64,000 bases of DNA. Origin: Eledone cirrhosa (Eukaryota). Made by a program: the position numbers and the translations under genes. Location: assembly GCA_964016885.1 (NCBI GenBank), contig OZ024744.1, positions 55,552,001 through 55,616,000 of the forward strand, written 5' to 3'. Shown here piece after piece: positions 8,973 to 56,215 of the stretch (position 1 is the stretch's first letter; each line of letters starts with the position of its first letter). The notes beneath the pieces are model-generated. The model did not search any database and was not told where the DNA came from. It was given only the letters and a program-made list of their open reading frames with translations.

Positions 8973-10872
8973 TAACTTTGAATAACTTTGAAATGTTTTG
9001 GCCAGTATTGGCCCAGGCCATGTCTAACTTAATAGCACCACCTGGCGAAGTCTTTCAATTCAGGATTTGGGCACCATGGCCCATTCGAGAAGAGAATTAC
9101 TGTTTGCGGAGACATATCCGGGTGTGGGTGGTTTGTCCGGGATTACTTGGAGGAATTTGTCCAAAGACTTCTTGAATTTTGTGTGGTCAGTTTCTGTTTT
9201 GACGTGTCCTGGTGTGATGTTGAAGAGAGCAGGGCCGATTGAGGTGAAATAATTGTGCCGTATTGTTGTTATGAGTTGCGATTTAGATTTTTGAATGGGA
9301 CGGATAGCACGGGGCCCAAGCCTTGGGTGTATCTTGAAGGCGATGCCAACATCATTTGGGCAGTGATGATGGAACATTTTCCACATCATGCAGATAATAT
9401 AACGCTCACGGCGACGTTGGAGTGAGTAAAGTTTCAGGTTTTCCAATCGACCCCAGTAGTCAAGGTCTGACATGCCATCTATCTTTTTCGTGATTGCCCT
9501 TTGAGGAGCTTCAAGTTTCATGATACTTTGTTTCGTGTGGGGAGACCACAGTGGACAACAGTATTCAAGGTGTGGTCGGGCGAAAGTAGAGAAGAGAAGG
9601 ATAATGGTGCGGGAATCTCTCGACTGGAAGGTTCTGAGGATCCAGGAACACATTCTGCGGGCCATGTCAACTTTGCTGCTTATATGCGTGGTCCAGCTTA
9701 TGTTGCTGTCCACGGTTACTCCCAAGTCTCTGATGTTGTTAGATGCCACGAGAGTTTCCCCGGAGGGAAGGGAGTACGGGAGTTTCAGAGCATCCTCTTT
9801 TCCAAAGTGGATCAGTTCGAATTTGTCTTCGTTCAGTAACATGTTGTTCTTTTCTGCCCATTGGGTAACAGCCAGTAGGTCTGACTGAAGGCTTATCCGG
9901 TCATCCACGCCATTGATGACCTTTTGGAGCTTGGAATCATCAGCGAAAATTTTAATGTTGCTGTGTTTGATGATGTCAGTGATGTCATTAATATAGATGA
10001 TGAAGAGAAGTGGGCCCAACACAGTGCCTTGTGGGACTCCACTACTGACTTTGGCTGGGCTTGATTTGACTCCCTCAACTACAACATGTTGGGTTCTGTT
10101 TGACAGGAAGCTCTTGATCCACTGCAGCAGCTTTCCAGTGACACCAATATTGGACAGCTTTCTCAGTAGAATGTTATGATCAACCCTGTCAAAGGCCTTG
10201 CTGAAATCAAGGTAGATAACATCAGTGTTGGAACCCTCTCCCAAGGCTCTCAAAATGTCATCAAAGTGATGCAGTAGTTGCGTCAGGCAATCCCTTCCAT
10301 TACGGAATCCATGCTGGTTGGAGTTCAGCATATTGTTACTCTCAAGGAAGTGGGTCATTCGCGATCTCACCACTCGCTCAAATACCTTAATGATATGAGA
10401 GGTGAGTGAGATTGGACGGTAATTCACGGCAAGGGATTTGTTTCCCTTTTTGAAAACTGGGACAACAGACTGGGATAGAAGGTTTTCTGGCACATATCCA
10501 GCATCCAGTGAGTTCCGCCACAGATTGGCAAGAGGAGAAGCAAGTTGGTGTTGACACGCCCTCAAGACACAAGCAGGGAACCTATCGGGACCTACTGCTG
10601 AATTATGCTTGATTTCCTTTATTGCCGCCAAGACATCAGGGGCGCCAAACGTTATGTCCGATAAGGTGTAATGGGGAGTAACATCGCCGATACAGCCCAG
10701 ATCGGCCATATCAGGATTGCTGAAAACAGAGCAGTATTGTTTCTGCAGTATCTCACCCATGGTTTTAGCATTGTCTTGAAGAGTGCCATTTTCATCAATT
10801 AGAGGGCCAACAGTAGAGCCAGTGATTTTGTGTTTTTTTGCAAATGAAAAGAACACTTTGGGATTGAGTTTG
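8972..10872 (-). mobile_element. 5'-truncated CR1-group LINE, copy 1, with an uninterrupted RT frame (9060-10872)
   Basis: [46 protein letters not shown] motifs; 3' end with (TTCAAAGTTA)-type tail. Confidence 0.93.
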
Positions 10873-10938
<66 letters not shown>

Positions 10939-10947
10939 GTATATATG

Positions 10948-10985
<38 letters not shown>

Positions 10986-11107
10986 TGTATATGTATATGT
11001 ATATATATGTATATGTATATATATGTATATATGTATATATGTATATGTATATATATATATGTATATGTATATATATATGTATGTATATGTATATATGTAT
11101 ATATATG
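10873..11107. repeat. Compound (TA)n microsatellite
   Basis: Directly visible. Confidence 0.98.
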
Positions 11108-11240
11108 TCACACACACCTCTCCAAGACAATGTCACTGGACCGAGACCTTTGGCGGTACTCAGTAACAGAGAAGACCCGCCTTACCTAAATACATAGTAA
11201 AACCTACTACAGCCAGTAGGCATCTAACAAAATACCCCCC
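11108..11240 (+). mobile_element. Short internal fragment of RTE family B 3' region
   Basis: Nearly identical to 33767-33905 ([24 protein letters not shown]). Confidence 0.9.
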
Positions 11241-19444: not shown

Positions 19445-22400
19445 TCATCATCATCATCATTTTACGTCCGCTTTTCCCTGCTTGCAAGGGTGGGACGGGT
19501 CTTATTCAGCACAACATCTCTCCACTCGTCACGGTCCCTCGTCATCTCCACCGTGAGCTTCAATGATCTGAGGTCTGTTCTCACCACCTCCGCCCATGTT
19601 TTTCGTGGTCTACCTCTACCACGTCTTCCTTCAACTGGCATTTCCTGGCACTTCTTCACCCATCGGTCATCCTCCATGCGCATCACATGTCCATACCACC
19701 TCAGTCTCCTCTCCCGTACACTACATTCTATCCCTCTCAGACACAGTTTCTCTCTCAACACATTTATGCTGGGTCGTTCACGCACATTTACACTGCACAT
19801 CCAACGGAGCATGCTTGCCTCATTTCTCTCCAGCCGTCGCATATCCTCTGCGGTTGCTGCCCATGTCTCACTACCATGCAGCATCGCGCTCCTCACACAG
19901 GCATCATACAACCGGCCTTTCATACGCAGGGAGAAACCCTTCTTCGTCAACAGAGGAAGCAGCTCCCTAAACTTCTTCCAACCCGTCCTTATTCTCGATA
20001 CTATGGCCTCGGAACACCCTCCTCCTATGCTAATCTGATCTCCTAGGTACCGGAAGCTATCCACCACTTCTATAGCGCCCTCTCGCATTTGAAAAATGTG
20101 TCTATCAGTGCGACTTCTACTGTCTAATTTCCCTGTACATCTACTGCATACATATTTCTCCCTACCTGTTAGTTTGCCTGCTATCCCGCTACATCTCTTG
20201 TGTACCCAGGACCTGCATTGTGTGCATTTTATAGAATTTATGCCAGTTCCTTTTCTGCATATCGAACATGGCCATTTCCCTGACGGAATCAGGGTTTTGT
20301 CCTCTTTTCTACTCATCAACACTTTTGTCTTAGCTAGATTTACTCTGTCCTCTTGCTTCCAACTGCTGTTTCCATAGCTGGAATTTATTCTCTAGCTCCT
20401 CTACTGATTCTGCTATAAGAGCCAGATCGTCAGCATAGAGAAGTTCCCATGGACAGCCAGTCTTAAACTCCTCTGTTATGGCTTGGAGGACTATAATGAA
20501 CAAGAGCGGGCTGAGGACCGAACCCTGATGTACTCCTACTTGTATCTGGAATTCCTCACTAAACTCCATTCCTACCCTGACTTTACTGAGAGTACCTCTG
20601 TACAAAGTTTGCACTGTCCTCACAAGCCATTCCTCAACACCTAGCTTCCTTAGGGACCACCAGATGACAGATCGGGGTACCCTATCAAAGGCCTTCTCTA
20701 GGTCAACAAAGGCTAAGTATAGTGGCTTATTCTTCTCTAAGAACCTCTCTTGCATTTGTCTCACCAAGAAGAAGGCATCTGTTGTACTCTTCCCAGGCAC
20801 AAAACCAAACTGCATCTCATCTAGTTTGACCCTTTCTCTAATTAGTTGTGCTAAAATCCTTTCTGCCACTTTCATAACCTGATCTATCAGTTTTATACCC
20901 CTATAATTGCTCCTCTCCAAAGCATCCCCTTTACCTTTGTAGCAATTTATGAGAATACTGCTGCACCAGTCTTTGAGTATGACACCACCATATATAGCCT
21001 GATTGATGATGCGTGCAACCAGTTTAGTGCCTACGTCCCCTGATGCCTTCAGCATCTCAGCAACTATTCCCGATGGTCCGGCCGCCTTACCATTTTTCAT
21101 TTCCCTAATCGCCTCTTGGACCCTATATTCGTCAATCTCAATAGCTGGTCCCTCTGTCGGATCTACCAAGGGTAATTTCTCTCTCTCCCATTCGTTCTCC
21201 ACATTCATCAGTCTCTCATAATGACATTTCCAGGCCTCCTTTTTCTGGTCATTCGTGACACTAAGTACACCGGCATCATCCCAGACACATTTATCTCCAA
21301 CAACATCCTGATTTGCATTGACACACTGCCTTGCAATGTGGAACACCGCACGCCTCTGATCTTCCCTTCGCAGAACATTGGCAAACCTCCTACTCTCTGC
21401 CTCCCTGCGTGCTAAGTACACCTGACGTCTAGCTTCTCTCTTAGTGGCTGTATATTCTTCCCTACTCCCACCCTTTTTTCAAGCCTTCCATGCTAGTCTT
21501 TTGTCTCTAATAGCCTTATCTACTGTGCTGTTCCACCACCAGGTCACTCTCTGTCTGGTTGGAGCTCTGCTCCAGCCACAGGTTTCATCAGTAGCCTGCA
21601 GCAAGTTGTCACGTAAGAACTTCCAGTTATTATCTATGTCATACGTCTCTAAATCGTCTTCTTTTTCGTCATATACATCTTGAAGGGCTTTCCTAAATTT
21701 GTATTTTAGTGAAAGGTCTTTTAGCTTCCAGACCTTTCTTCTCCACACCGTCCTATATGTCTCATTCCATCTCTTGCTTACTGAGATATCACTAACAACT
21801 AACCTATGCTGTGGGGTACATTCTTCCCCAGGGTATGCCTTGGTATTAGACACTATCTGCCTGTCCCGCTGCCTAACTAGCAGGAAGTCAATCTGGCTTA
21901 TGTGCTCACCAGATTTGTAGGTTATTAGGTGATTGGCAGGTTTCTGGAAGTTTGTTTTGCAAATAGTCAATGTACCTGCATCACAAAATTCAAGAAGTCT
22001 CACTCCGTCATTTCTTGAGCCGTAACCGTTTACCCCAGTGTAACCATCCTGGAGCTGTCCAACATGACCATTGAAGTCTCCTGCTAGCATAACGATGTCT
22101 CCGTCCTCTGTCATTGTGGTTGTTTGCAAAAGTTGCTCATAAAAGCAGTCTTTCTCATCTTTGCCTAGGCCTGCTTGGGGAGCATAGACCGAGATGATTG
22201 TCAGTAGTCTCCTACCTACAACTAATCTAAGCTTAATTATTCGATTACTAACTCGAACTACCTCTATTGTCTTATTGATCCATTTCTCAGCCAGGAAAAT
22301 GCTTACTCCCCCTAACCCATCATCCTTACCTACCCAGAATAGCTTATAGCTAAGACGCTTGCCTACGACTAGTCTCGCAGAGGCACCTCTCCATCTCACT

Positions 22401-25639: not shown

Positions 25640-28600
25640 TATATATCTATCTATCTATCTAAGGCGGGTAAAATTCCCGAGATCCATGGACGAGTTCTCT
25701 CCAGCGGTCTCTGTCCCTCATTATCGCTGCCATATCCTGCATCACCAACAGACCAGTGTCTGTCCTTAGGGCATCAACATATGTTAACCTTGGTCTTCCT
25801 CTTCTAGTGTGTCCATGTAGGGGCTCCCAAAGGAGCACTGAGTGCAATGTAAACTCTGGATGTCGGTGAGCATGTCCAGCCAACCTCAGTCTCCTCTGTG
25901 TCACTTTTGAGGTGACTTTTGGGATGCTCCCATAGAGCTCTGAGTTTTTCATCCTCAGTGTATACTGATTAATGTTCAGAGCCATCCTCAGTATTCTCGT
26001 GTAGCACCCATCCACCATCTGAGTGAGTCTCTTGGTCAGTGTCCAAGTCTCAGACCCATACAGCAGCACATACTCCACTACAGCAATGAAGAGGCGGATT
26101 TTCAGGTCTCTACAAAGGTCCGACTTCCACACCGATCTCAAGCTGTGACACGCCGCCCAGGCCTTGCTCTTCCTCCCAACCACATCATCTTCCGTATTCC
26201 CAATCTTTGCTCCCAAATACAGGAAGTCCTCAACCAATTCCAGCGGCTTCCCGCCTACATTAGTGATCCCCTCTGGCTTCTCAACATTCTCCACCAGATA
26301 TTTTGTTTTAGTCCCATTCATTCTCAGCCCCACACTCATCGACACAGTCTCAACCTCCCGCATCAAATCCTCTGCCTCCTTCACTGTATTTGTCACCAAA
26401 ACTATGTCGTCGGCAAATTCAGCATCCGATACCTTTTTCGCCCCAACTCTCCTGCTCTGAGCCGGTGCTACAGTAAAGCCAGTGTATCTCCTGGAGCACT
26501 CCAGCCAGTATCTCAAAGAACTCTGTCATCCCATCAGGTGTAATGACTTGGGTGTTGGTGTAGAGCAGTGATATCAGGTCCACTATCCTCTTGGGGATTC
26601 CATAAGCCTGTAAGATCTTCATCAGGCAGTAACGGTCCACAGAATCAAAGGCCTTCCTAAAGTCAATGAAAACCATGACCGCAGGAAGGCACTTTGCTCT
26701 AGCTCCCTCTAATATCCTCCTCAGCATCAGGATGTGACTGGTGGTTGATCTACCCTCTCTGAAGCCGTTCTGGTTGTCCCTGAGCTTCTTCTCCATCTCA
26801 GGCTGGATCCTGTTAAGAATCATCCTGTTGAGGGTCTTTGCCACAAGTGACGTCAGTGAGATCCCCCGGTAGTTGTTGGTGTTAGAGAGATCTCCCTTCT
26901 TTGGCACTGGGATGATGTTACTGATCCTCCACTGATTCGGGGCAACTCCTTTCTCCAGTGCTCCGTTACAGAACCCCAGGATGATGTCATCAAAATCACA
27001 CCTCTTCATCACCTCTGATGCCACTCCATCCTCTCCATGAGCCTTGCCCTCCTTGATCTTCTTCTTGGCTCTCTGAAGCTCCTCTCTGGTGAAGGGCTCT
27101 GTCTCAACATCCAGTTCCTCAAACAGCCGCCTGATCTCCCCACTGCTCTGGGCTGTGGAGGGTGGCTCTCCTAGTAGGGTCCTAAAATGGTCTAGCCATT
27201 TCCTCTTCCTATCCTCGGGCCCCGTTCCCTGGATCTGACTCGAACACCTTTTCTTCCTCCCTGTGATCTCGTTGATGATCATCCAGCTCTCCTTACATCC
27301 AGATCTGTCAACCGCTCTCTCCACACTTCTGATCTTCTCTATCAGTGCCTCCTCTCTGACCTCAGTGTAAGCGGTACAGAGCTCTTCCCTCATCACCTCC
27401 ACAGTCTCCATCCTCTCCTCCGTAGGATCAGCATAGAATTGGTCCCTGGCAGCTTTCAGGTGTTCTCTGGCTGCACACACTTTTGGGTTTGCAGAGCTGA
27501 CGTGCTTCCCTTTGTTCTTTTTCCTCGGCACCAGGGTTTCACTTGCTTTCGCCACTGCATTGGTGAAGTGCCCGTACCTCCTCGTCACACTCTCCTCAGT
27601 CCATCCAATCTCTCTCTCCTCTGACTCTCCACACAGAGCACTAAACCTGTTTCTCACTTCCACTGTGAACCTCTCCTGTAGCTTATCATCTTCCTTGAAA
27701 GCTCCCCAGTCATAGATTGTTCTCCGGGGCTGAGCCTTGCTCTTTCTTAAGCTCACGCGGACCTCACTCATAACAAGCCGGTGGTCACTACCCAGTGTAC
27801 TGAAATAGCTGTATGGTTCCGTGTTCAGAACACTATTCCGCCACTTTTTCCTCACCAGAATGAAATCAATCTGGGACTTGGACAGGTGCATATCTGAGAT
27901 GTAGGTCCACATCTTCCCCAGATTCTTCCTAAACCTTAGGTTGGTTGCCATCAAGTTCGCCTCCAGCAGGGTGTCTCTCAGTAGTCTTCCATTTCGGTTG
28001 GTGTTGTTATGGAAGTACCAGCAAGGATCTTCACTGCCCTCCTTACTCAGATGTGCATTGAAGTCCCCCAAAACAAGCAGGATATTGTGTGCCTGAGTGG
28101 TGTTGACAGCCCCACACACCTCCTCATGGAACTCCTCGGCATTCACATCACTGTCCCCCTCGGTTGGACTATAGGCTGAGATGACTGTCAGTCTTGGGTT
28201 TCCATTGAAGGTCACCATCAACACTCGCGGGGAGATAGGCATTATTTCCCTCACCAACAGATTGGTTTTTGCACTGAACACAAAACCCACTCCTCCTACT
28301 GCAGCATTTGTTGTGTTCTTCACTGCCGATGTAGTGATGAGCTGGCTCTTCCTCCCGATCATCACACTCCTCACGGGCTCATCGTGTAGAATCCTGTGTT
28401 CTTGGATCGCAAGTATCTGTATACCACTCTCCTCGAACAGATGTCCCAACTCCTCTCTCTTCTCCAGCGTTCGAATAGTCCTCACATTCAAAGTGCCCAT
28501 TTTGATGGCTCTTCTGCAGGACAAAACTGCATTCTTTATATTTGTCTCAGAGACAGCTGATCCATCATCCACTGGCCCTCTCTGTGGCTCTAAGCCAGCA

Positions 28601-28892
28601 GAGTCATAACGACCAGGCTGCTCCTTGACAGTGTAATTAGGGGCTCTAACCCTAGTGCTGTTAGATCGACTCTCCATATTTCTTTTCAATGGCTGACAAT
28701 ACCTTACCGGCGCCACTCGAATAAGGTAGTTATTTAACCCATAAATGGAGCCCTAACAGGTACTACCACCCCGGGCCAGGGCAGACCTGGGAGTCATGAC
28801 AACTAAGGGGTAACTCCACATTCCCCACATCTCCTGAACTCCCGAACTGGAGCCTTGCCACTGGATGTAGTTTAATGTCATACCCAGGACAG
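25640..28892 (-). mobile_element. RTE-clade LINE family C, near full length (APE + RT), with an internal deletion/frameshift near 26480
   Basis: GTLNVRT, AIQEHR, SAYSPT, GDFNA, SDHR; NYRGISL, QNGFR, FIDFRKAFD, FADD, FLYLG; (TAGA)n tail; ~170-bp 5' UTR. Confidence 0.93.
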
Positions 28893-43339: not shown

Positions 43340-46300
43340 TCATCATCATCGTTTAACGTCCATATTCCACGCTTGCATGGGTTTGGACGGGAGTTTTCCC
43401 ACTTGAGGCAAGAGTGGTTGTCTTGTTCGCATAGGACTGTCTGGCAGGTTTTCTATGGCTGGATGCCCTTCCTAACACCAACCACATTTACAGTGTGGAA
43501 CTGGGAGGTTTTTACCGTGTTACCTACACGGCCACATTACAGCGTGGACTGTGTGTTTTTTTGTCGTGACACCTACACGACCTCATTTGTTTCGGCCTGG
43601 ATGTTGTGGTCCCAACATAACTTTACATTGAAAGGGATGGAGTGGGGGTAGTGGGACGGGGGTGTATTTTGTTAGAGGTGCCTACTGACTGTAGTAGGTT
43701 TTACTTTGTATTTAGGTAAGGCGGGTCTTCTCTATTACTGTGTAGCGCCAAAGATCTCGGTCCACTGACATTGTCTTGGAGAGGTGTAAGTGTGTGAGGT
43801 CGGAATTTATCAAGTCGTCCCAGGTTTTTCTGGGTCTGCCTACTCCGTGGCTACCATCTATTTTTATTGCCCTGCACTTTTTTATACAGCTGTTGTCTTT
43901 CATGCGCATCACGTGACCATACCAACGTAGCCTTCTCTCGAGTAAACATCTGATCCCTCTTATTTCTAATTTTTCCCTTAGTTCGTTTATGCTTTGCCGT
44001 TCACGTATATTACTATTACACATGTAACGGAGCATGCAAGCTTCGTTCCTCTCTAGTCTGCGTATATCCTCTGCACACAATGCCCAGGTCTCCCTGCCAT
44101 GCAACATTGCTGTTCGTATGCAGGCATCATACAGCCTGCCTTTCATTTTTAGGGAGAACCCTTTAGCAGCTAATAGTAATATAAGCTCTCTGAACTTTTT
44201 CCATCCAGTTCTGACTCTAGCTACTGTACTTTCAGAGCACCCTCCCCCACTGCTGATTTTGTCACCCAGGTAACGGAAGCTGTCCACTATTTCTATAGAA
44301 CCGTCTGTGCAATTGAAAGAACTAGTATTTTGTGGGCACTTGCTGCTACTTATTGCACCAGAGCACCGGCCACATATAAAATCTATGTTCTTAGTTAGCT
44401 TACCTGTGATCCCACTACATCTTTTATGCACCCATAATTTGCATTTGGGACATAAAATGGAGTTTCTACCTACTCCTTTCCTCCACACTGAGCATGGCCA
44501 TTTCCCGGATGGGACCGGCGCCCTATTTTCCTTCTTACAAACTAGAACTTTAGTCTTAGACAGGTTAATTTTAAGGCCTTTTGATTCTAGGCCATGCTTC
44601 CATGTTTGGAATTTCTTTAGTTCGGCCATTGATTCAGCTATGAGCGTTAGATCATCTGCGTATAGGAGTTCCCATGGGCAGCCGGTCTTGAACTCCACTG
44701 TTATAGCCTGAAGGGCAATAATAAATAGTAGGGGGCTAAGAACGGAGCCCTGATGAACACCAACTTTTACGCTAAACTCTTCACTATATTCGTTGTTAAT
44801 TCTAACCTTGCTGACTGTTTCTTTATACATGGCTTGTATAGCTCTCACAAGCCATTCATCAACACCTAGTTTTCTAAGAGCCCACCAGATAATGGAACGG
44901 GGGACTCTGTCGAAGGCTTTCTCCAAGTCAACAAAAGCTAAGTATAGGGGTTTACTTTTAGCTAGGTACTTCTCCTGTAGTTGTCGTACAATGAAAAGAG
45001 CGTCTGTGGTACTTTTGCCCGACACAAACCCGAACTGCATTTCATCTAGGTCAATTCGCTCTGTGATTAGTTGCGCTATTACTTTTTCTGTGACCTTCAT
45101 GACCTGGTCAATAAATTAATGCCTCTATAGTTTCCCCTATCTATGACATCTCCTTTACCCTTGTAGCAGTTAATGATGATGATGCTACGCCAGTCCTTTG
45201 GTACGACCCCATTCTGTATGACTTGGTTTACTATCCGGGTGACCATGGTGTGTCCCACCGTTCCAGAAGCTTTCAGCATGTCAGCAACTATTTCCGAAGG
45301 CCCAGCCGCCTTACCCGTCTTTGTATCTTGATTGCCTTACTTATTATAGCTACCTTCTTATCAGCGTCAGTGATAGCAAGTACACCATCATCATTAAGTA
45401 CACACTTCTCCCCGATAATATCACGGTTTTCCTTGACACATTGCCTAGCAATCCTGAACACCTCACGTTTTTGGTCCTCGCGTTGTAGAACATGCTTGAA
45501 CTTTCTTTCCTCTGCTTCCCTTCTTGCGAAGTACACTTGTCTCCTAGCTTCCCTCCTGGCCACTTGATAGACTTCTCTACTTCTCCCATCCCGCCATACT
45601 TTCCAAGCCTGCTTTTTGGCTTTAATTGACTCCTCCACCTTACTGTTCCACCACCATGTTACTCTCCTCCTGCCTATAGGCCTGCTCCAGCCATAGACTT
45701 CGTCTGCCGCCATCAGCAGGTTTGCTTTCAGGAATTCCCACTGTTCCTCTATATTGTACGACTCTAAGTGCTCTTCCTTACTGTCGAAAGCATCAAGTAA
45801 TATGCTTTTAAATTTATTTCTCAAAGTGGGGTCCTTTAGCTTCCATATTTTTCTCCTGAGGATAGTCCTTCTGCTGTCGAGTATGTCTCGTCCTGACTAT
45901 GAGGTCGCTAATTATGAGTCTGTTGGGAGGTGCATTCTTCATGGGGGAGGGATTTAGTGTTTACAACAGACACTCTGTCAGGTCTTCTGGTAAGGATATA
46001 ATCTACCTGGCTGGTATGTTCCCCTGATCTGTAGGTGATCAAGTGATTGTCTCGTTTTTTGAAGTTAGTGTTACAGATAGTTAGGTTATTTGTGTCACAG
46101 AATTCCAGGATTCTGGAGCCTTCCTCATTTCTAGTACCAAACCCATAGCCTCCATGGATTCCATCATAGCCGTCACAATGTTGTCCAACGTGACCATTTA
46201 GGTCGCCAGCAATAATTATATAGTCACTGTCGGTTATTTGGGAGGTTGTGAGCATCAGTGTCTCATAGAAACTGTCTTTTATAGCACCAGACAGTCCGGA

Positions 46301-49717: not shown

Positions 49718-50052
49718 AGAGGCACATGGCTTAGTGGTTAGAGCATTGGCCTTGCAATCGAAAGGTTGTGAGTTCAATTCTCAGACTGGGTGACGTGTTG
49801 TTTCCTTGAGCAAGACACTTTATTTCACATTGCTCCAGTTTACTGAGCTGTAGAATTGAGATAAGGATTGAAGTCCCTATCATTGCACTGCAAAGTGATC
49901 GTGGAGGTGCCATGGCAAAAAAACACCCAGCACTCACTGTAAATGAGGTTGGTGTTAGGAAGGGCATCCAGATGTAGAAATCAAGCCAGAATCAGTTCCC
50001 GTCCCACCCTTGCAAGCAGGGAAAAAGCGGACGTGAAATGAAATGATGATGA

Positions 50053-51209: not shown

Positions 51210-52075
51210 TTGGACATCTATGAAGTCCAAGATCACTAGTTCAAATCATACAAGAACAAATCCAGGATGCAGTTGCAGGAAGCCGGATGAATGCCCATTG
51301 CAGGGTAAATGTAACACCAAATCTGTTGTTTATGAGGCTAAAATAACACCGGTAATCAACAACCAGCCAGCCAGGAGTGAGCGATATATCGGTATGACCC
51401 AGGACAGGTTTAAAACCAGATTTTACTCACATGTCGCTTCTTTTAAGCACTCCGATAAACGAACATCAACGGCCCTCGCAAGTAAGGTGTGGGAATTCAA
51501 GGATAGTAACATCCCGTATTCTATCGATTGGTCTATCTTAGACCATTCATAGGGAGTACCAAAGGGGCACGAAGAATTGTTCTTTGTGTAGCACAGAAAA
51601 ATATAGGATTTTGCTAAACTTGAGAGCCACTTCTGCTTGCCTAAACTTAAAGACAGATCTTCAGATGTTGTCCTCATCTGAAATCACATCTGATCTGTAA
51701 CTGGATTGACACTCCTATGATAAATCAACCGCCTTGAACTCCTTCTCTGCTCTTTACTTCTGCTACGGTTTCTTTTTATTTGCTGAATCCACGTTCTGTA
51801 CTCTTTTCTTTTTCTCCCTTATATTTCACCTTTTTCTATGTCTTTGCCCCCCCCCCCCATATATTCTTTTTGCCTTACCCTTCACATACCAAAATGTATG
51901 TGTATGTATATGTATGTGTATATATATATATATATATATGTGTGTGTATATATATGTATATGTAGATAGACCAGGTTTTTTTCATTCTGATGATTGAAGG
52001 CAAATTTTTTTGCTTTTAAGAAACCATTGGTGAATGGAATAATTGCCTTATGTTTATTACATTACTACTATATAT
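51210..52075 (+). mobile_element. Penelope-like 3' fragment (Naiad-like GIY-YIG) followed by a hammerhead-containing terminus
   Basis: CSCRKPDECPLQGKC, VVYEA, YIGMT, FKTRFYSH, STALASKVW, then CSLCSTEK in a shifted frame. Confidence 0.85.
51980..52039 (+). ncRNA. Type I hammerhead motif (HH-2), cleavage triplet is GUG
   Basis: tttcatt-CTGATGA-[ttgaaggcaa..ttgcttttaa]-GAAA-ccattgg-TG-aatggaa. Confidence 0.7.
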
Positions 52076-53153: not shown

Positions 53154-53215
53154 TTTCATTCTGAGGATTGAAAGCAAAAAACTTTTTGCTTTTCAGAAAC
53201 CACTGGTAAATGGAA
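53154..53215 (+). ncRNA. Type I hammerhead motif (HH-2), GUA site
   Basis: tttcatt-CTGAGGA-[ttgaaagcaaaaa..tttttgcttttca]-GAAA-ccactgg-TA-aatggaa. Confidence 0.75.
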
Positions 53216-53860
53216 TAATTGCCTTATGTTGTTTATTACATAACTATTAAGCTCTGTTACCTACATAGAGCACTCTTTTTTCCTGGACTTTTCCAATGGA
53301 ATTACTTCATTTATATATATATATATATATATATATTTATTTATATATATATATATAAATATTTATTTATATATATATTTATTTATATATTTATATATAT
53401 ATTTATTTATATATTTATTTATATATTTATATATATATTTATCTATATGTTTATATATATATTTATATATATAATATATATATTTATATATATATATATT
53501 TATTTATATATATTTATATATATATATATTTATTTATATATATATATATATTTATTTATATATATATATATTTATTTATATATATATATATTTATTTATA
53601 TATATTTATTTATATATATTTATTTATATATATTTAAACAATTAAGTTAAAAATGTACATCCACATATGTATACTGAAATACTAGTATGCATATGAATAC
53701 ACACACGTGTACATATGTAGATGTACCGAGTTTTTCACTGGACACTTTACTGTGAGTGTCCAGCTATTCTGTATGTAAACACACAGACAAACCGGTTTTT
53801 AGAGTCATACTGGTTTTCGAGGAAACACCTTTCCTCTATTCTCCAGAAAGCCAGACAAGG

Positions 53861-53905
53861 AATATTGGACTAGTTTCGATGTTGTTACATCTGATCAGCA
53901 ATATT
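53861..53905 (-). ncRNA. Minimal hammerhead (HH-3), core mutated (CTGATCA)
   Basis: Reverse complement of 54710-54754 except G8>C. Confidence 0.75.
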
Positions 53906-54709
53906 TACCTATCTTCCGGCCTTTCTAGAGAATCGTAAAAGCACATATCGTTATATGCTTTTTCTATGAAAATTAGTAGTGGGCAGACTAATTTGCATAG
54001 AGCGTGAGTACATACCGGTTCAGCGGAGACGATAAAAACAAATAACGAAACGAAATTAAATTTCGTTTTGTTTGTAACTCACTTTTGTATGACTGACGCT
54101 TAAACAATTAAGTTAAAAATGTACATCCACATATGTATACTGAAATACTAGTATGCATATGAATACACACACGTGTACATATGTAGATGTACCGAGTTTT
54201 TCACTGGACACTTTACTGTGAGTGTCCAGCTATTCTGTATGTAAACACACAGACAAACCGGTTTTTAGAGTCATACTGGTTTTCGAGGAAACACCTTTCC
54301 TCTATTCTCCAGAAAGCCAGACAAGGAATATTGGACTAGTATGACTCTAAAAACCGGTTTGTCTGTGTGTTTACATACAGAATAGCTGGACACTCACAGT
54401 AAAGTGTCCAGTGAAAAACTCGGTACATCTACATATGTACACGTGTGTGTATTCATATGCATACTAGTATTTCAGTATACATATGTGGATGTACATTTTT
54501 AACTTAATTGTTTAAGCGTCAGTCATACAAAAGTGAGTTACAAACGAAACGAAATTTAATTTCGTTTCGTTATTTGTTTTTATCGTCTCCGCTGAACCGG
54601 TATGTACTCACGCTCTATGCAAATTAGTCTGCCCACTACTAATTTTCATAGAAAAAGCATATAACGATATGTGCTTTTACGATTCTCTAGAAAGGCCGGA
54701 AGATAGGTA

Positions 54710-54754
54710 AATATTGCTGATGAGATGTAACAACATCGAAACTAGTCCAATATT
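54710..54754 (+). ncRNA. Canonical minimal type I hammerhead ribozyme (HH-3), predicted cleavage after 54747
   Basis: aatattg-CTGATGA-gatgt(aaca)acatc-GAAA-ctag-TC-caatatt; perfect stems I and II, palindromic ACTAGT stem III. Confidence 0.9.
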
Positions 54755-55141
54755 CCTTGTCTGGCTTTCTGGAGAATAGAGGAAAGGTGTTTCCTCGAAA
54801 ACCAGTATGACTCTAAAAACCGGTTTGTCTGTGTGTTTACATACAGAATAGCTGGACACTCACAGTAAAGTGTCCAGTGAAAAACTCGGTACATCTACAT
54901 ATGTACACGTGTGTGTATTCATATGCATACTAGTATTTCAGTATACATATGTGGATGTACATTTTTAACTTAATTGTTTAAGCGTCAGTCATACAAAAGT
55001 GAGTTACAAACGAAACGAAATTTAATTTCGTTTCGTTATTTGTTTTTATATATATTTATTTATATATATATATATTTATTTATATATATTTATTTATATA
55101 TATATATTTATATATATTTATATATATTTATATATATATAT

Positions 55142-55830
55142 AATTAAGTTAAAAATGTACATCCACATATGTATACTGAAATACTAGTATGCATATGAAT
55201 ACACACACGTGTACATATGTAGATGTACCGAGTTTTTCACTGGTCACTTTACTGTGAGTGTCCAGCTATTCTGTATGTAAACACGCAGACAAACCGGTTT
55301 TTCGAGTCATACTGGTTTTTGAGGAAACACCTTTCCTCTATTCTCCAGAAAGCCAGACAAGGAATATTGGACTAGTTTCGATGTTACATCTCATCAGCAA
55401 TATTTACCTATCTTCCGGCCTTTCTAGAGAATCGTAAAAGCACATATCGTCATATGCTTTTTCTATGAAAATTAGTAGTGGGCAGACTAATTTGCATAGA
55501 GCGTAAGTACGTACCGGTTCAGCGGAGACGATAAAAACAAATAACGAAACGAAATTAAATTTCGTTTCGTTTGTAACTCACTTTTGTATGACTCTAAAAA
55601 CCGGTTTGTCTGCGTGTTTACATACAGAATAGCTGGACACTCACAGTAAAGTGACCAGTGAAAAACTCGGTACATCTACATATGTACACGTGTGTGTATT
55701 CATATGCATACTAGTATTTCAGTATACATATGTGGATGTACATTTTTAACTTAATTGTTTAAGCGTCAGTCATACAAAAGTGAGTTACAAACGAAACGAA
55801 ATTTAATTTCGTTTCGTTATTTGTTTTTAT
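55142..55830. mobile_element. Retrozyme-like cassette 2: ~1 unit fused to ~0.5 inverted unit
   Basis: Same unit as cassette 1; inversion at GTATGACT 55586-55593. Confidence 0.9.
55363..55404 (-). ncRNA. Minimal hammerhead (HH-3), intact core, stem II 3 nt shorter
   Basis: aatattg-CTGATGA-gatg(taa)catc-GAAA-ctag-TC-caatatt on the minus strand. Confidence 0.87.
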
Positions 55831-55841
55831 ATATATATATT

Positions 55842-55877
<36 letters not shown>

Positions 55878-56215
55878 TATATATATATATTTATATATAT
55901 ATATTTCGTTTCTGAATTTGTTTAGCAAGATTCTTTATCTGAAATCGTGTGTTGAAACCGATATTGTTATACTTTGGGAGGGTCATGTTGTCAATAAGAA
56001 ACACACGCACCAGTTGCTTTCACTTCAATTTATTATATATTTATAAATTTATAATTTATAAATTTCTGGTTGGTTGGTTGGTTCCACAACCAGATAGTTG
56101 TTTATATATAGTCATAGTTCTTTCGTCACAGTTCTTTCGTAACAGCCGTACTAAGAGTGGGAATTTCATTTCATTTCAATTTTTCCGTATATATATATAT
56201 TTATATATATATATA

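Follow-up and report, generated by a model that had tools for sequence, protein, structure and literature searches.

A young 466-bp hammerhead retrozyme family in Eledone cirrhosa with two fixed insertion ends and genomic evidence for Penelope mobilisation

The genome of Eledone cirrhosa (3.0 Gb) contains a young family of 466-bp hammerhead units, spread genome-wide in thousands of copies, whose insertions carry the footprint of Penelope-like elements (PLEs). We are highly confident that the 466-bp unit is a PLE-mobilised retrozyme as far as the class assignment alone is concerned, and the genomic evidence for Penelope mobilisation of the family is strong. By comparison with the literature, this is a new family of animal non-LTR retrozymes. 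A more specific version of this reading, in which a PLE reverse transcriptase/endonuclease wrote a probably circular RNA into TA microsatellites by copying it from either side of a break, is in our judgement probable. The analysis started from a window of 64 kb (C28:55,552,001-55,616,000), and coordinates given without a locus name refer to this window. A sequence-only reading of the window had proposed a candidate retrozyme, and this proposal is supported on every feature that can be tested on DNA.

Throughout, phase 1 denotes the base 3' of the predicted ribozyme cut (position 54748), and 5' and 3' are given for the ribozyme strand. The period of 466 bp is exact, as had been claimed: the minus arm at 53634-54340 matches itself at a distance of 466 with 241 of 241 bases identical, and the plus arm, at 54335-55049, is 99.86% identical over 715 nt to a tandem dimer of the unit. 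What had been described as a single tandem array is, however, two independent two-armed insertions with different haplotypes (53634-55049 and 55142-55830), each made of a minus and a plus arm that diverge outwards into TA tracts. Insertion 1 has a (TA)n-type microsatellite (53312-53633) as its left target flank and consists of a site-A arm (53634-54340, minus strand; 1.52 units, phases 460 to 234, 3' end at 53634) and a site-B arm (54338-55049, plus strand; 1.53 units, phases 57 to 302), which overlap by 3 nt at the inversion junction. It is separated by another (TA)n-type tract (55050-55141) from insertion 2, whose site-A arm (55142-55593, minus strand; 0.97 unit, phases 240 to 228) carries the haplotype 50A, 85C, 126A and whose site-B arm (55586-55830, plus strand; 0.53 unit, phases 58 to 302) is flanked on the right by a (TA)n-type microsatellite at 55831-55904. 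The variants 85C and 126A are common to both arms of insertion 2, and the haplotype of insertion 1 differs. The 8-nt overlap between the arms of insertion 2 corresponds to both strands of a predicted helix (58-65/240-247). TRF returned no entry for the unit because no arm in the window reaches two units. Elsewhere in the window, a tRNA-like match (49725-49788, plus strand; 29.9 bits) is presumably the head of a tRNA-derived SINE, and fragments of RVT_1 retrotransposon ORFs are found at 9060-11132, 20330-21478, 26419-28752 and 43712-45115, all on the minus strand, one with an endonuclease domain and one with a PHD finger. No PLE protein match was detected in the 64 kb.

The unit has a GC content of 36.5%, i.e., below 50%, and, in agreement with the sequence-only reading, lacks a credible ORF (the longest ATG-initiated frame spans 19 aa in sense and 50 aa in antisense) and contains all the hairpins named there. 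Its linear fold is computed to be far better than that of shuffled sequences (z of -11.7), and the predicted circular fold (-156.5 kcal/mol, z of -10.3, against -134.9 for the antisense strand) is closed, branched and highly self-paired, with stems I and II formed and the ribozyme left free. A dimer fold in which the palindromes are paired is predicted to lie within 0.4 kcal/mol of the optimum. Predicted pairs are broken by 11 of the 48 changes fixed within arrays (21 of these 48 occurring only at one locus, which belongs to the 469-nt subfamily) versus 59 of the 109 singletons (P 4e-4). Covariation is limited to three pairs changed on both sides, one of them in stem II, and related sequences inflate such counts. 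None of the loci that we read presented an LTR layout.

Four hammerheads had been claimed in the window. The one at 54710-54754 (plus strand) is indeed an intact type I hammerhead, with a 7-bp stem I bearing a loop-1 bulge and extension, the core segments CUGAUGA and GAAA, a stem II of 4-5 bp, a 6-nt palindrome replacing helix III and a predicted cut after GUC at 54747/54748. The mutated copy at 53861-53905 (minus strand) shows a single core change (CUGAUCA, i.e., G8C at position 53893) and is predicted to be inactive; the same G8C change abolished cleavage in the PLE ribozyme assayed in PMC11167929. The truncated copy at 54327-54340 (minus strand), which keeps the palindromic helix III, the cut site and the 3' strand of stem I, was broken off by the inversion junction. 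The copy at 55363-55404 (minus strand) had also been called intact, which is true of its core only since 3 nt are missing from loop 2. Searches with Rfam models returned no hammerhead in the window at the gathering level; the match to Hammerhead_HH9 at 54699-54770 aligned the full model with an E-value of 1.2e-7 (38.9 bits, for a gathering score of 52), a second match at 53845-53916 had an E-value of 2.4e-6, and sub-threshold matches to miRNA and sRNA models were rejected as hairpin noise.

The description of the ribozyme as a canonical minimal hammerhead stands in one sense and fails in another: it is a canonical metazoan type I hammerhead with a vestigial helix III, but it is not the "min-HHR" of PLEs as defined in PMC4209133. 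The latter is described there with a helix II of 7-8 bp, a helix I of 4-5 bp and an extra base between positions 9 and 10.1, whereas in the ribozyme of the unit helix I has 7 bp and a loop 1, helix II has 4-5 bp and position 10.1 is not preceded by an extra base. The two are alike in their palindromic positions around loop 3 and their predicted dimer activity, as far as PMC4209133 describes them, and hammerhead variants with U3-A8 are found in coding PLEs of this genome instead. The hammerhead of the unit is predicted to self-cleave, to be active as a dimer and to give rise to a circle of 466 nt. Two other kinds of hammerhead-like motif were seen in the window. One, with a long stem II, has two related copies just left of the TA tract holding insertion 1 (53161-53220, plus strand, with a GUA triplet; 51987-52046, plus strand, with UG). 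The other belongs to a family of repeats whose helix III has an AT palindrome (29252, minus; 29406, plus; 30950, minus; 32762, plus). The pair at 29.15-29.5 kb is arranged head to head as a perfect palindrome that ends in a TA tract, and the family has relatives at many other loci.

Across the genome, the exact 30-nt hammerhead core was found in 2,603 copies, versus 0 for the reversed control. A DNA search with the whole unit, in which 40 of 356 candidates were scored, yielded at least 257 matches, and the 150 listed are 98-100% identical. Genomic copies keep their catalytic core, which is intact in 113 of the 114 cut-to-cut units of the first 18 regions. The genome-wide search for tandem arrays that had been called for revealed head-to-tail arrays of 1 to 70 units. 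This resolves an earlier caveat, namely that the window holds no pair of intact same-sense ribozymes one unit apart: two or more consecutive complete type I hammerheads are present elsewhere in the genome, though not in the window. The family comprises subfamilies of 466 nt (with GUC and GUU cut triplets), 465, 463 and 469 nt, the last being ~91% identical to the 466-bp unit and equally young. Loci were picked by likeness to the unit or by their position on C1, and young, long copies are over-represented as a result of the choice by likeness. We also observed a sister tandem family of ~480-515 bp (L096:7218-9501; also L098, L075 and L121-L149), which is two-armed and matches the unit with ~65% identity across 300 nt. 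It shares the helix III palindrome of the unit, its stem II is mismatched at the base, and it contains a variable (TA)n tract internally. A short stretch of the window (56170-56187) resembles the 3' end of this sister family and adjoins the next TA tract. Finally, an unrelated 310-bp hammerhead tandem (L036:3006-5501), two-armed and nearly invariant, lies ~470 bp from an array of the 466-bp family.

The support for Penelope mobilisation comes from the ends of the copies. End statistics were based on 96 loci with 172 arms of at least 40 nt and 169 scorable 3' ends. Two positions account for nearly all of these 3' ends: 78 fall at site A (phases 227-234; window 54974-54981, plus strand), 80 at site B (phases 296-303) and 11 elsewhere. 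The stretch from site A to site B (54982-55049, plus strand), which we call the tail, measures ~70 nt and holds a 13-bp hairpin. Among the 66 diverging pairs of arms, 8 have a rearranged end and all 58 classifiable pairs combine one A end with one B end, none being AA or BB (P 7e-18 versus 0.5). TA repeats adjoin 150 of the 158 A/B ends. In contrast to these fixed 3' ends, 5' ends are spread evenly over the unit (chi-square P 0.16); a cluster at phases 454-460 (9/172, nominal P 0.001) was discarded as a post hoc signal that does not clearly survive the ~66 windows. Both arms exceed one unit in 33/66 pairs, and 41/66 overlap by 1-4 nt at the junction. Target duplications, which are unresolvable in TA tracts, were seen at both of the two inverted insertions located outside microsatellites (~10 bp at L042 and 11-14 bp at L196).

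This anatomy is close to that of known PLEs. Insertions of EN+ PLEs are described as a pLTR and an inverted 5'-truncated copy with a tail of 30-40 bp on one end and a bias towards (TA)n (10.1101/2021.04.23.441226). In vitro, purified Poseidon_Ac nicks AT-rich DNA on both strands and extends them, starting at two sites within the RNA whose distance from each other equals the tail (PMC11167929). The 466-bp family shares with the EN+ PLEs of these two papers the inverted arms, the tail on one end and the AT-rich target, and with Poseidon_Ac, as described in PMC11167929, two starts downstream of the hammerhead inside the RNA and the priming of both strands. It differs from the EN+ PLE insertions described there by the absence of an ORF in the unit, a tail of ~70 nt and arms that are often both multi-unit. 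By analogy, we infer that sites A and B are probably the starts of reverse transcription, one per strand. PLE mobilisation, which the sequence-only reading had merely cited, is thus supported here by two fixed ends.

What molecule served as the template can be partly read from the arms. Reverse transcription of a cut linear monomer is expected to give arms whose 5' ends lie at phase 1 and whose length does not exceed 302 nt. However, 141 of the 158 arms cross the cut site, 123 are longer than one unit and none of the 172 5' ends falls at the ribozyme cut (phases 464-3). The template was therefore not a cut linear monomer, which leaves a circle or an uncut multimer. In 13 of the 58 inverted pairs (both arms of at least 200 nt), a variant absent from all other sampled loci is present in every covering unit of both arms. 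One such variant, 432G, has 30 matches genome-wide, of which 17 are all the units of the two-armed locus at C4:301.1 Mb and 13 lie at four other loci on other haplotype backgrounds. Likewise, 68 of the 74 matches of 259G belong to the 70-unit locus at C1:81.8 Mb, and the remaining 6 lie at three loci on other haplotype backgrounds. Each variant, on its own background, is thus confined to one locus in the assembly; their recurrence on other backgrounds counts against the circle, as does the chance that a single assembly lacks a parent locus. At C5:63.09 Mb, the first units of both arms are of haplotype A, and haplotypes A and B alternate strictly along the plus arm, which is the pattern predicted for a dimer template; the haplotypes of this array (C5:63,088,070-63,095,490; L221, L222) differ at 7 or more sites, and recombinant units occur in the middle of the long arm.

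The fixed private changes are also enriched in A>G on the ribozyme strand (9 of 29, 11 of the 29 coming from two diverged loci, versus 22 of 256 singletons; Fisher P 0.0015). The strand bias is weak (9 versus 4 T>C, P 0.12; 6 versus 1 among both-arm changes, P 0.058). It is possible that this A>G excess is a scar of A-to-I editing of the template RNA, and the variants fixed in both arms together with the A>G enrichment fit one circular, possibly edited RNA. Candidate circles from sequencing runs were rejected: the closed loops of 465/466 nt in runs X4 and X6 (one each, of unrecorded run type) can be explained by tandem DNA. A genomic array at C14:27.5 Mb has exactly the haplotype of the X4 loop, so that tandem DNA accounts for this loop and its additional A>G letters were rejected as editing.

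The same element and enzyme might alternatively have used as template a linear multimer, transcribed from an existing array and left uncut, with a ribozyme that is slow or serves another step and with homogeneous arrays produced by later expansion in place. This scenario accounts for arms that cross the cut site, and it also accounts for the 7 of 58 inverted pairs that share a variant polymorphic in both arms; such a variant, being present in some units only, cannot come from one monomer circle. Local periodic duplication is evident in the 31- and 70-unit arrays, which indicates that arrays grew after insertion and that the number of units does not equal the number of turns round a circle. Moreover, unprocessed RNA was the dominant substrate of the PLE enzyme in vitro and the ribozyme was not required (PMC11167929), and eight of nine Xenopus retrozyme dimers showed no cleavage in vitro according to 10.64898/2026.07.22.740005. 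On the other hand, a variant fixed in both arms and absent elsewhere on that background would need a one-unit bottleneck, in a linear multimer a change arising in the RNA would be confined to a single unit, and conservation of the closed fold extends over the whole unit. We therefore regard an uncut multimer as a possible but rather unlikely template, and the circle as roughly twice as probable.

A search for the GIY-YIG domain, in which 150 of 10,596 candidates were scored and 50 loci read, revealed many PLEs in this genome. Autonomous elements are present, with RT and GIY-YIG ORFs of 938 and 477 aa; another ORF of 1096 aa combines an RT (Pfam scan) with a GIY-YIG domain (genome search). The 1096- and 938-aa ORFs carry an RT, a cysteine motif and an endonuclease, and these elements are Neptune-like judging by the description of that group in 10.1101/2021.04.23.441226. 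The 3' regions of coding PLEs contain hammerheads with other palindromes, often with U3-A8 cores, followed by two alternative ends in TA tracts. Coding PLEs carry hammerheads of their own, target TA tracts and show inverted copies as well as two ends, as in the footprint of the 466-bp family. One of them has a tail of ~66 nt (read by eye), compared with ~70 nt here, without sequence likeness, and none of the seven PLE families compared by eye among the 50 loci shares sequence or sites with the unit. A pattern describing PLE-type cores with the palindrome of the unit gave 284 matches versus 71 for the control; of the 100 matches listed, most belong to the sister repeat. A GIY-YIG match located 3 kb from an array (L081) was rejected as a partner and represents a separate element with its own ribozyme. 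Separately, the 70-unit array, which lies in a short TA tract, adjoins an open PLE RT frame (L104:700-1850, minus strand) that is 26-28% identical to three PLE queries and represents a further PLE family.

The resemblance to PLE insertions (10.1101/2021.04.23.441226) also raises the question of whether the unit is the pLTR of a yet unseen autonomous PLE and its copies truncated insertions, and the sample of GIY-YIG candidates leaves some room for such an element. Nevertheless, pure arrays reach 70 units, the coding families have different ribozymes and the unit occurs in the 50 GIY-YIG loci as inserted copies only. PLE protein matches flank 10 of the 104 unit loci but none is continuous with the unit (L041, L096 and C1:81.8 Mb by eye; the others from coordinates). 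In this partial sample of 50 GIY-YIG and 104 unit loci, no copy of the unit was the pLTR of a coding element, and we consider this explanation very improbable. Non-autonomous PLEs of the Chlamys clade such as MRC1 have a 3' end resembling that of their autonomous partner, and the clade is reported to be without hammerheads (10.1101/2021.04.23.441226); the 466-bp unit differs from these in its hammerhead and in that homology to a partner was not found. A DNA-level satellite or rolling-circle DNA element with the hammerhead as a passenger is more improbable still: arrays do grow at the DNA level, but the fixed 3' and random 5' ends in the ribozyme sense, the target duplications, the conserved core and the lower fold energy of the sense strand (-156.5 versus -134.9) all speak against it, and the A+B pairing of 58/58 inverted pairs disfavours it strongly.

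Returning to the circular template, we propose the following sequence of events. Arrays would be transcribed, and neighbouring hammerheads are predicted to pair their 6-nt palindromes and to cut after GUC or GUU, releasing monomers and sometimes dimers. These would be ligated into circles, as suggested by the retrozymes of coral, mussel and axolotl. A PLE protein acting in trans would then nick both strands of an AT-rich target and start reverse transcription from site B at one nick and from site A at the other; the enzyme is proposed from PMC11167929, and the end pattern is seen in the genomic copies. Both cDNAs would extend past the cut site by varying lengths before joining head to head, and both the run-through and the short-overlap joins are seen in the copies. 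Long arrays would further extend in place by local duplication, as the periodicity of variants shows. In its most specific form, for which we see about even chances, the two RTs of a Penelope-type dimer start at two fixed sites of the same closed RNA circle (monomer or dimer, sometimes A-to-I edited) and roll round it.

The family conforms to metazoan non-LTR retrozymes, as described in PMC7229834 and 10.64898/2026.07.22.740005, in its short non-coding tandem unit with one type I hammerhead each, its weak palindromic helix III, its GC content below 50%, its long target duplications (above 4 bp where visible, as in those retrozymes), its self-paired fold with a free ribozyme and its co-existence with PLEs. 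The length of 466 bp is slightly above the 150-450 bp given in PMC7229834 and within the 51-972 bp of 10.64898/2026.07.22.740005. Two-armed insertions, fixed double 3' ends and microsatellite targeting are not described in the accessible text of these two sources, which deduce mobilisation by PLEs from their co-occurrence and from pLTR homology and describe the mechanism as open; for the 466-bp unit, by contrast, no pLTR homologue was found in the PLE loci that we read. We found no cephalopod retrozyme in the literature, although the supplement of PMC7229834 may list such a family, and the word "ribozyme" is absent from the main text of the Octopus vulgaris repeat paper (PMC13282606). Proposals that PLEs copy retrozyme circles into tandem DNA date from 2014 and 2020; the 2026 preprint (10.64898/2026.07.22.740005) continues to treat such copying as open, and our literature search found no work showing it from insertion ends.

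Because the family is young and abundant, the products of its insertion serve as an experiment, which names two start sites and rules out a cut linear monomer as the template. With these end statistics and variant patterns, the open mechanism becomes directly testable, and the family supplies a defined 466-nt RNA for the existing in vitro PLE assay. A reverse transcriptase that starts inside a structured RNA, primes on both strands and maybe rolls round a circle is also a potential tool. If the proposed copying of one closed circle from two fixed sites is true, it would constitute genomic evidence for rolling-circle target-primed reverse transcription, and it would explain both the arrays of retrozymes and the tandem and inverted layout of Penelope elements through a parasite that needs no homology to its helper.
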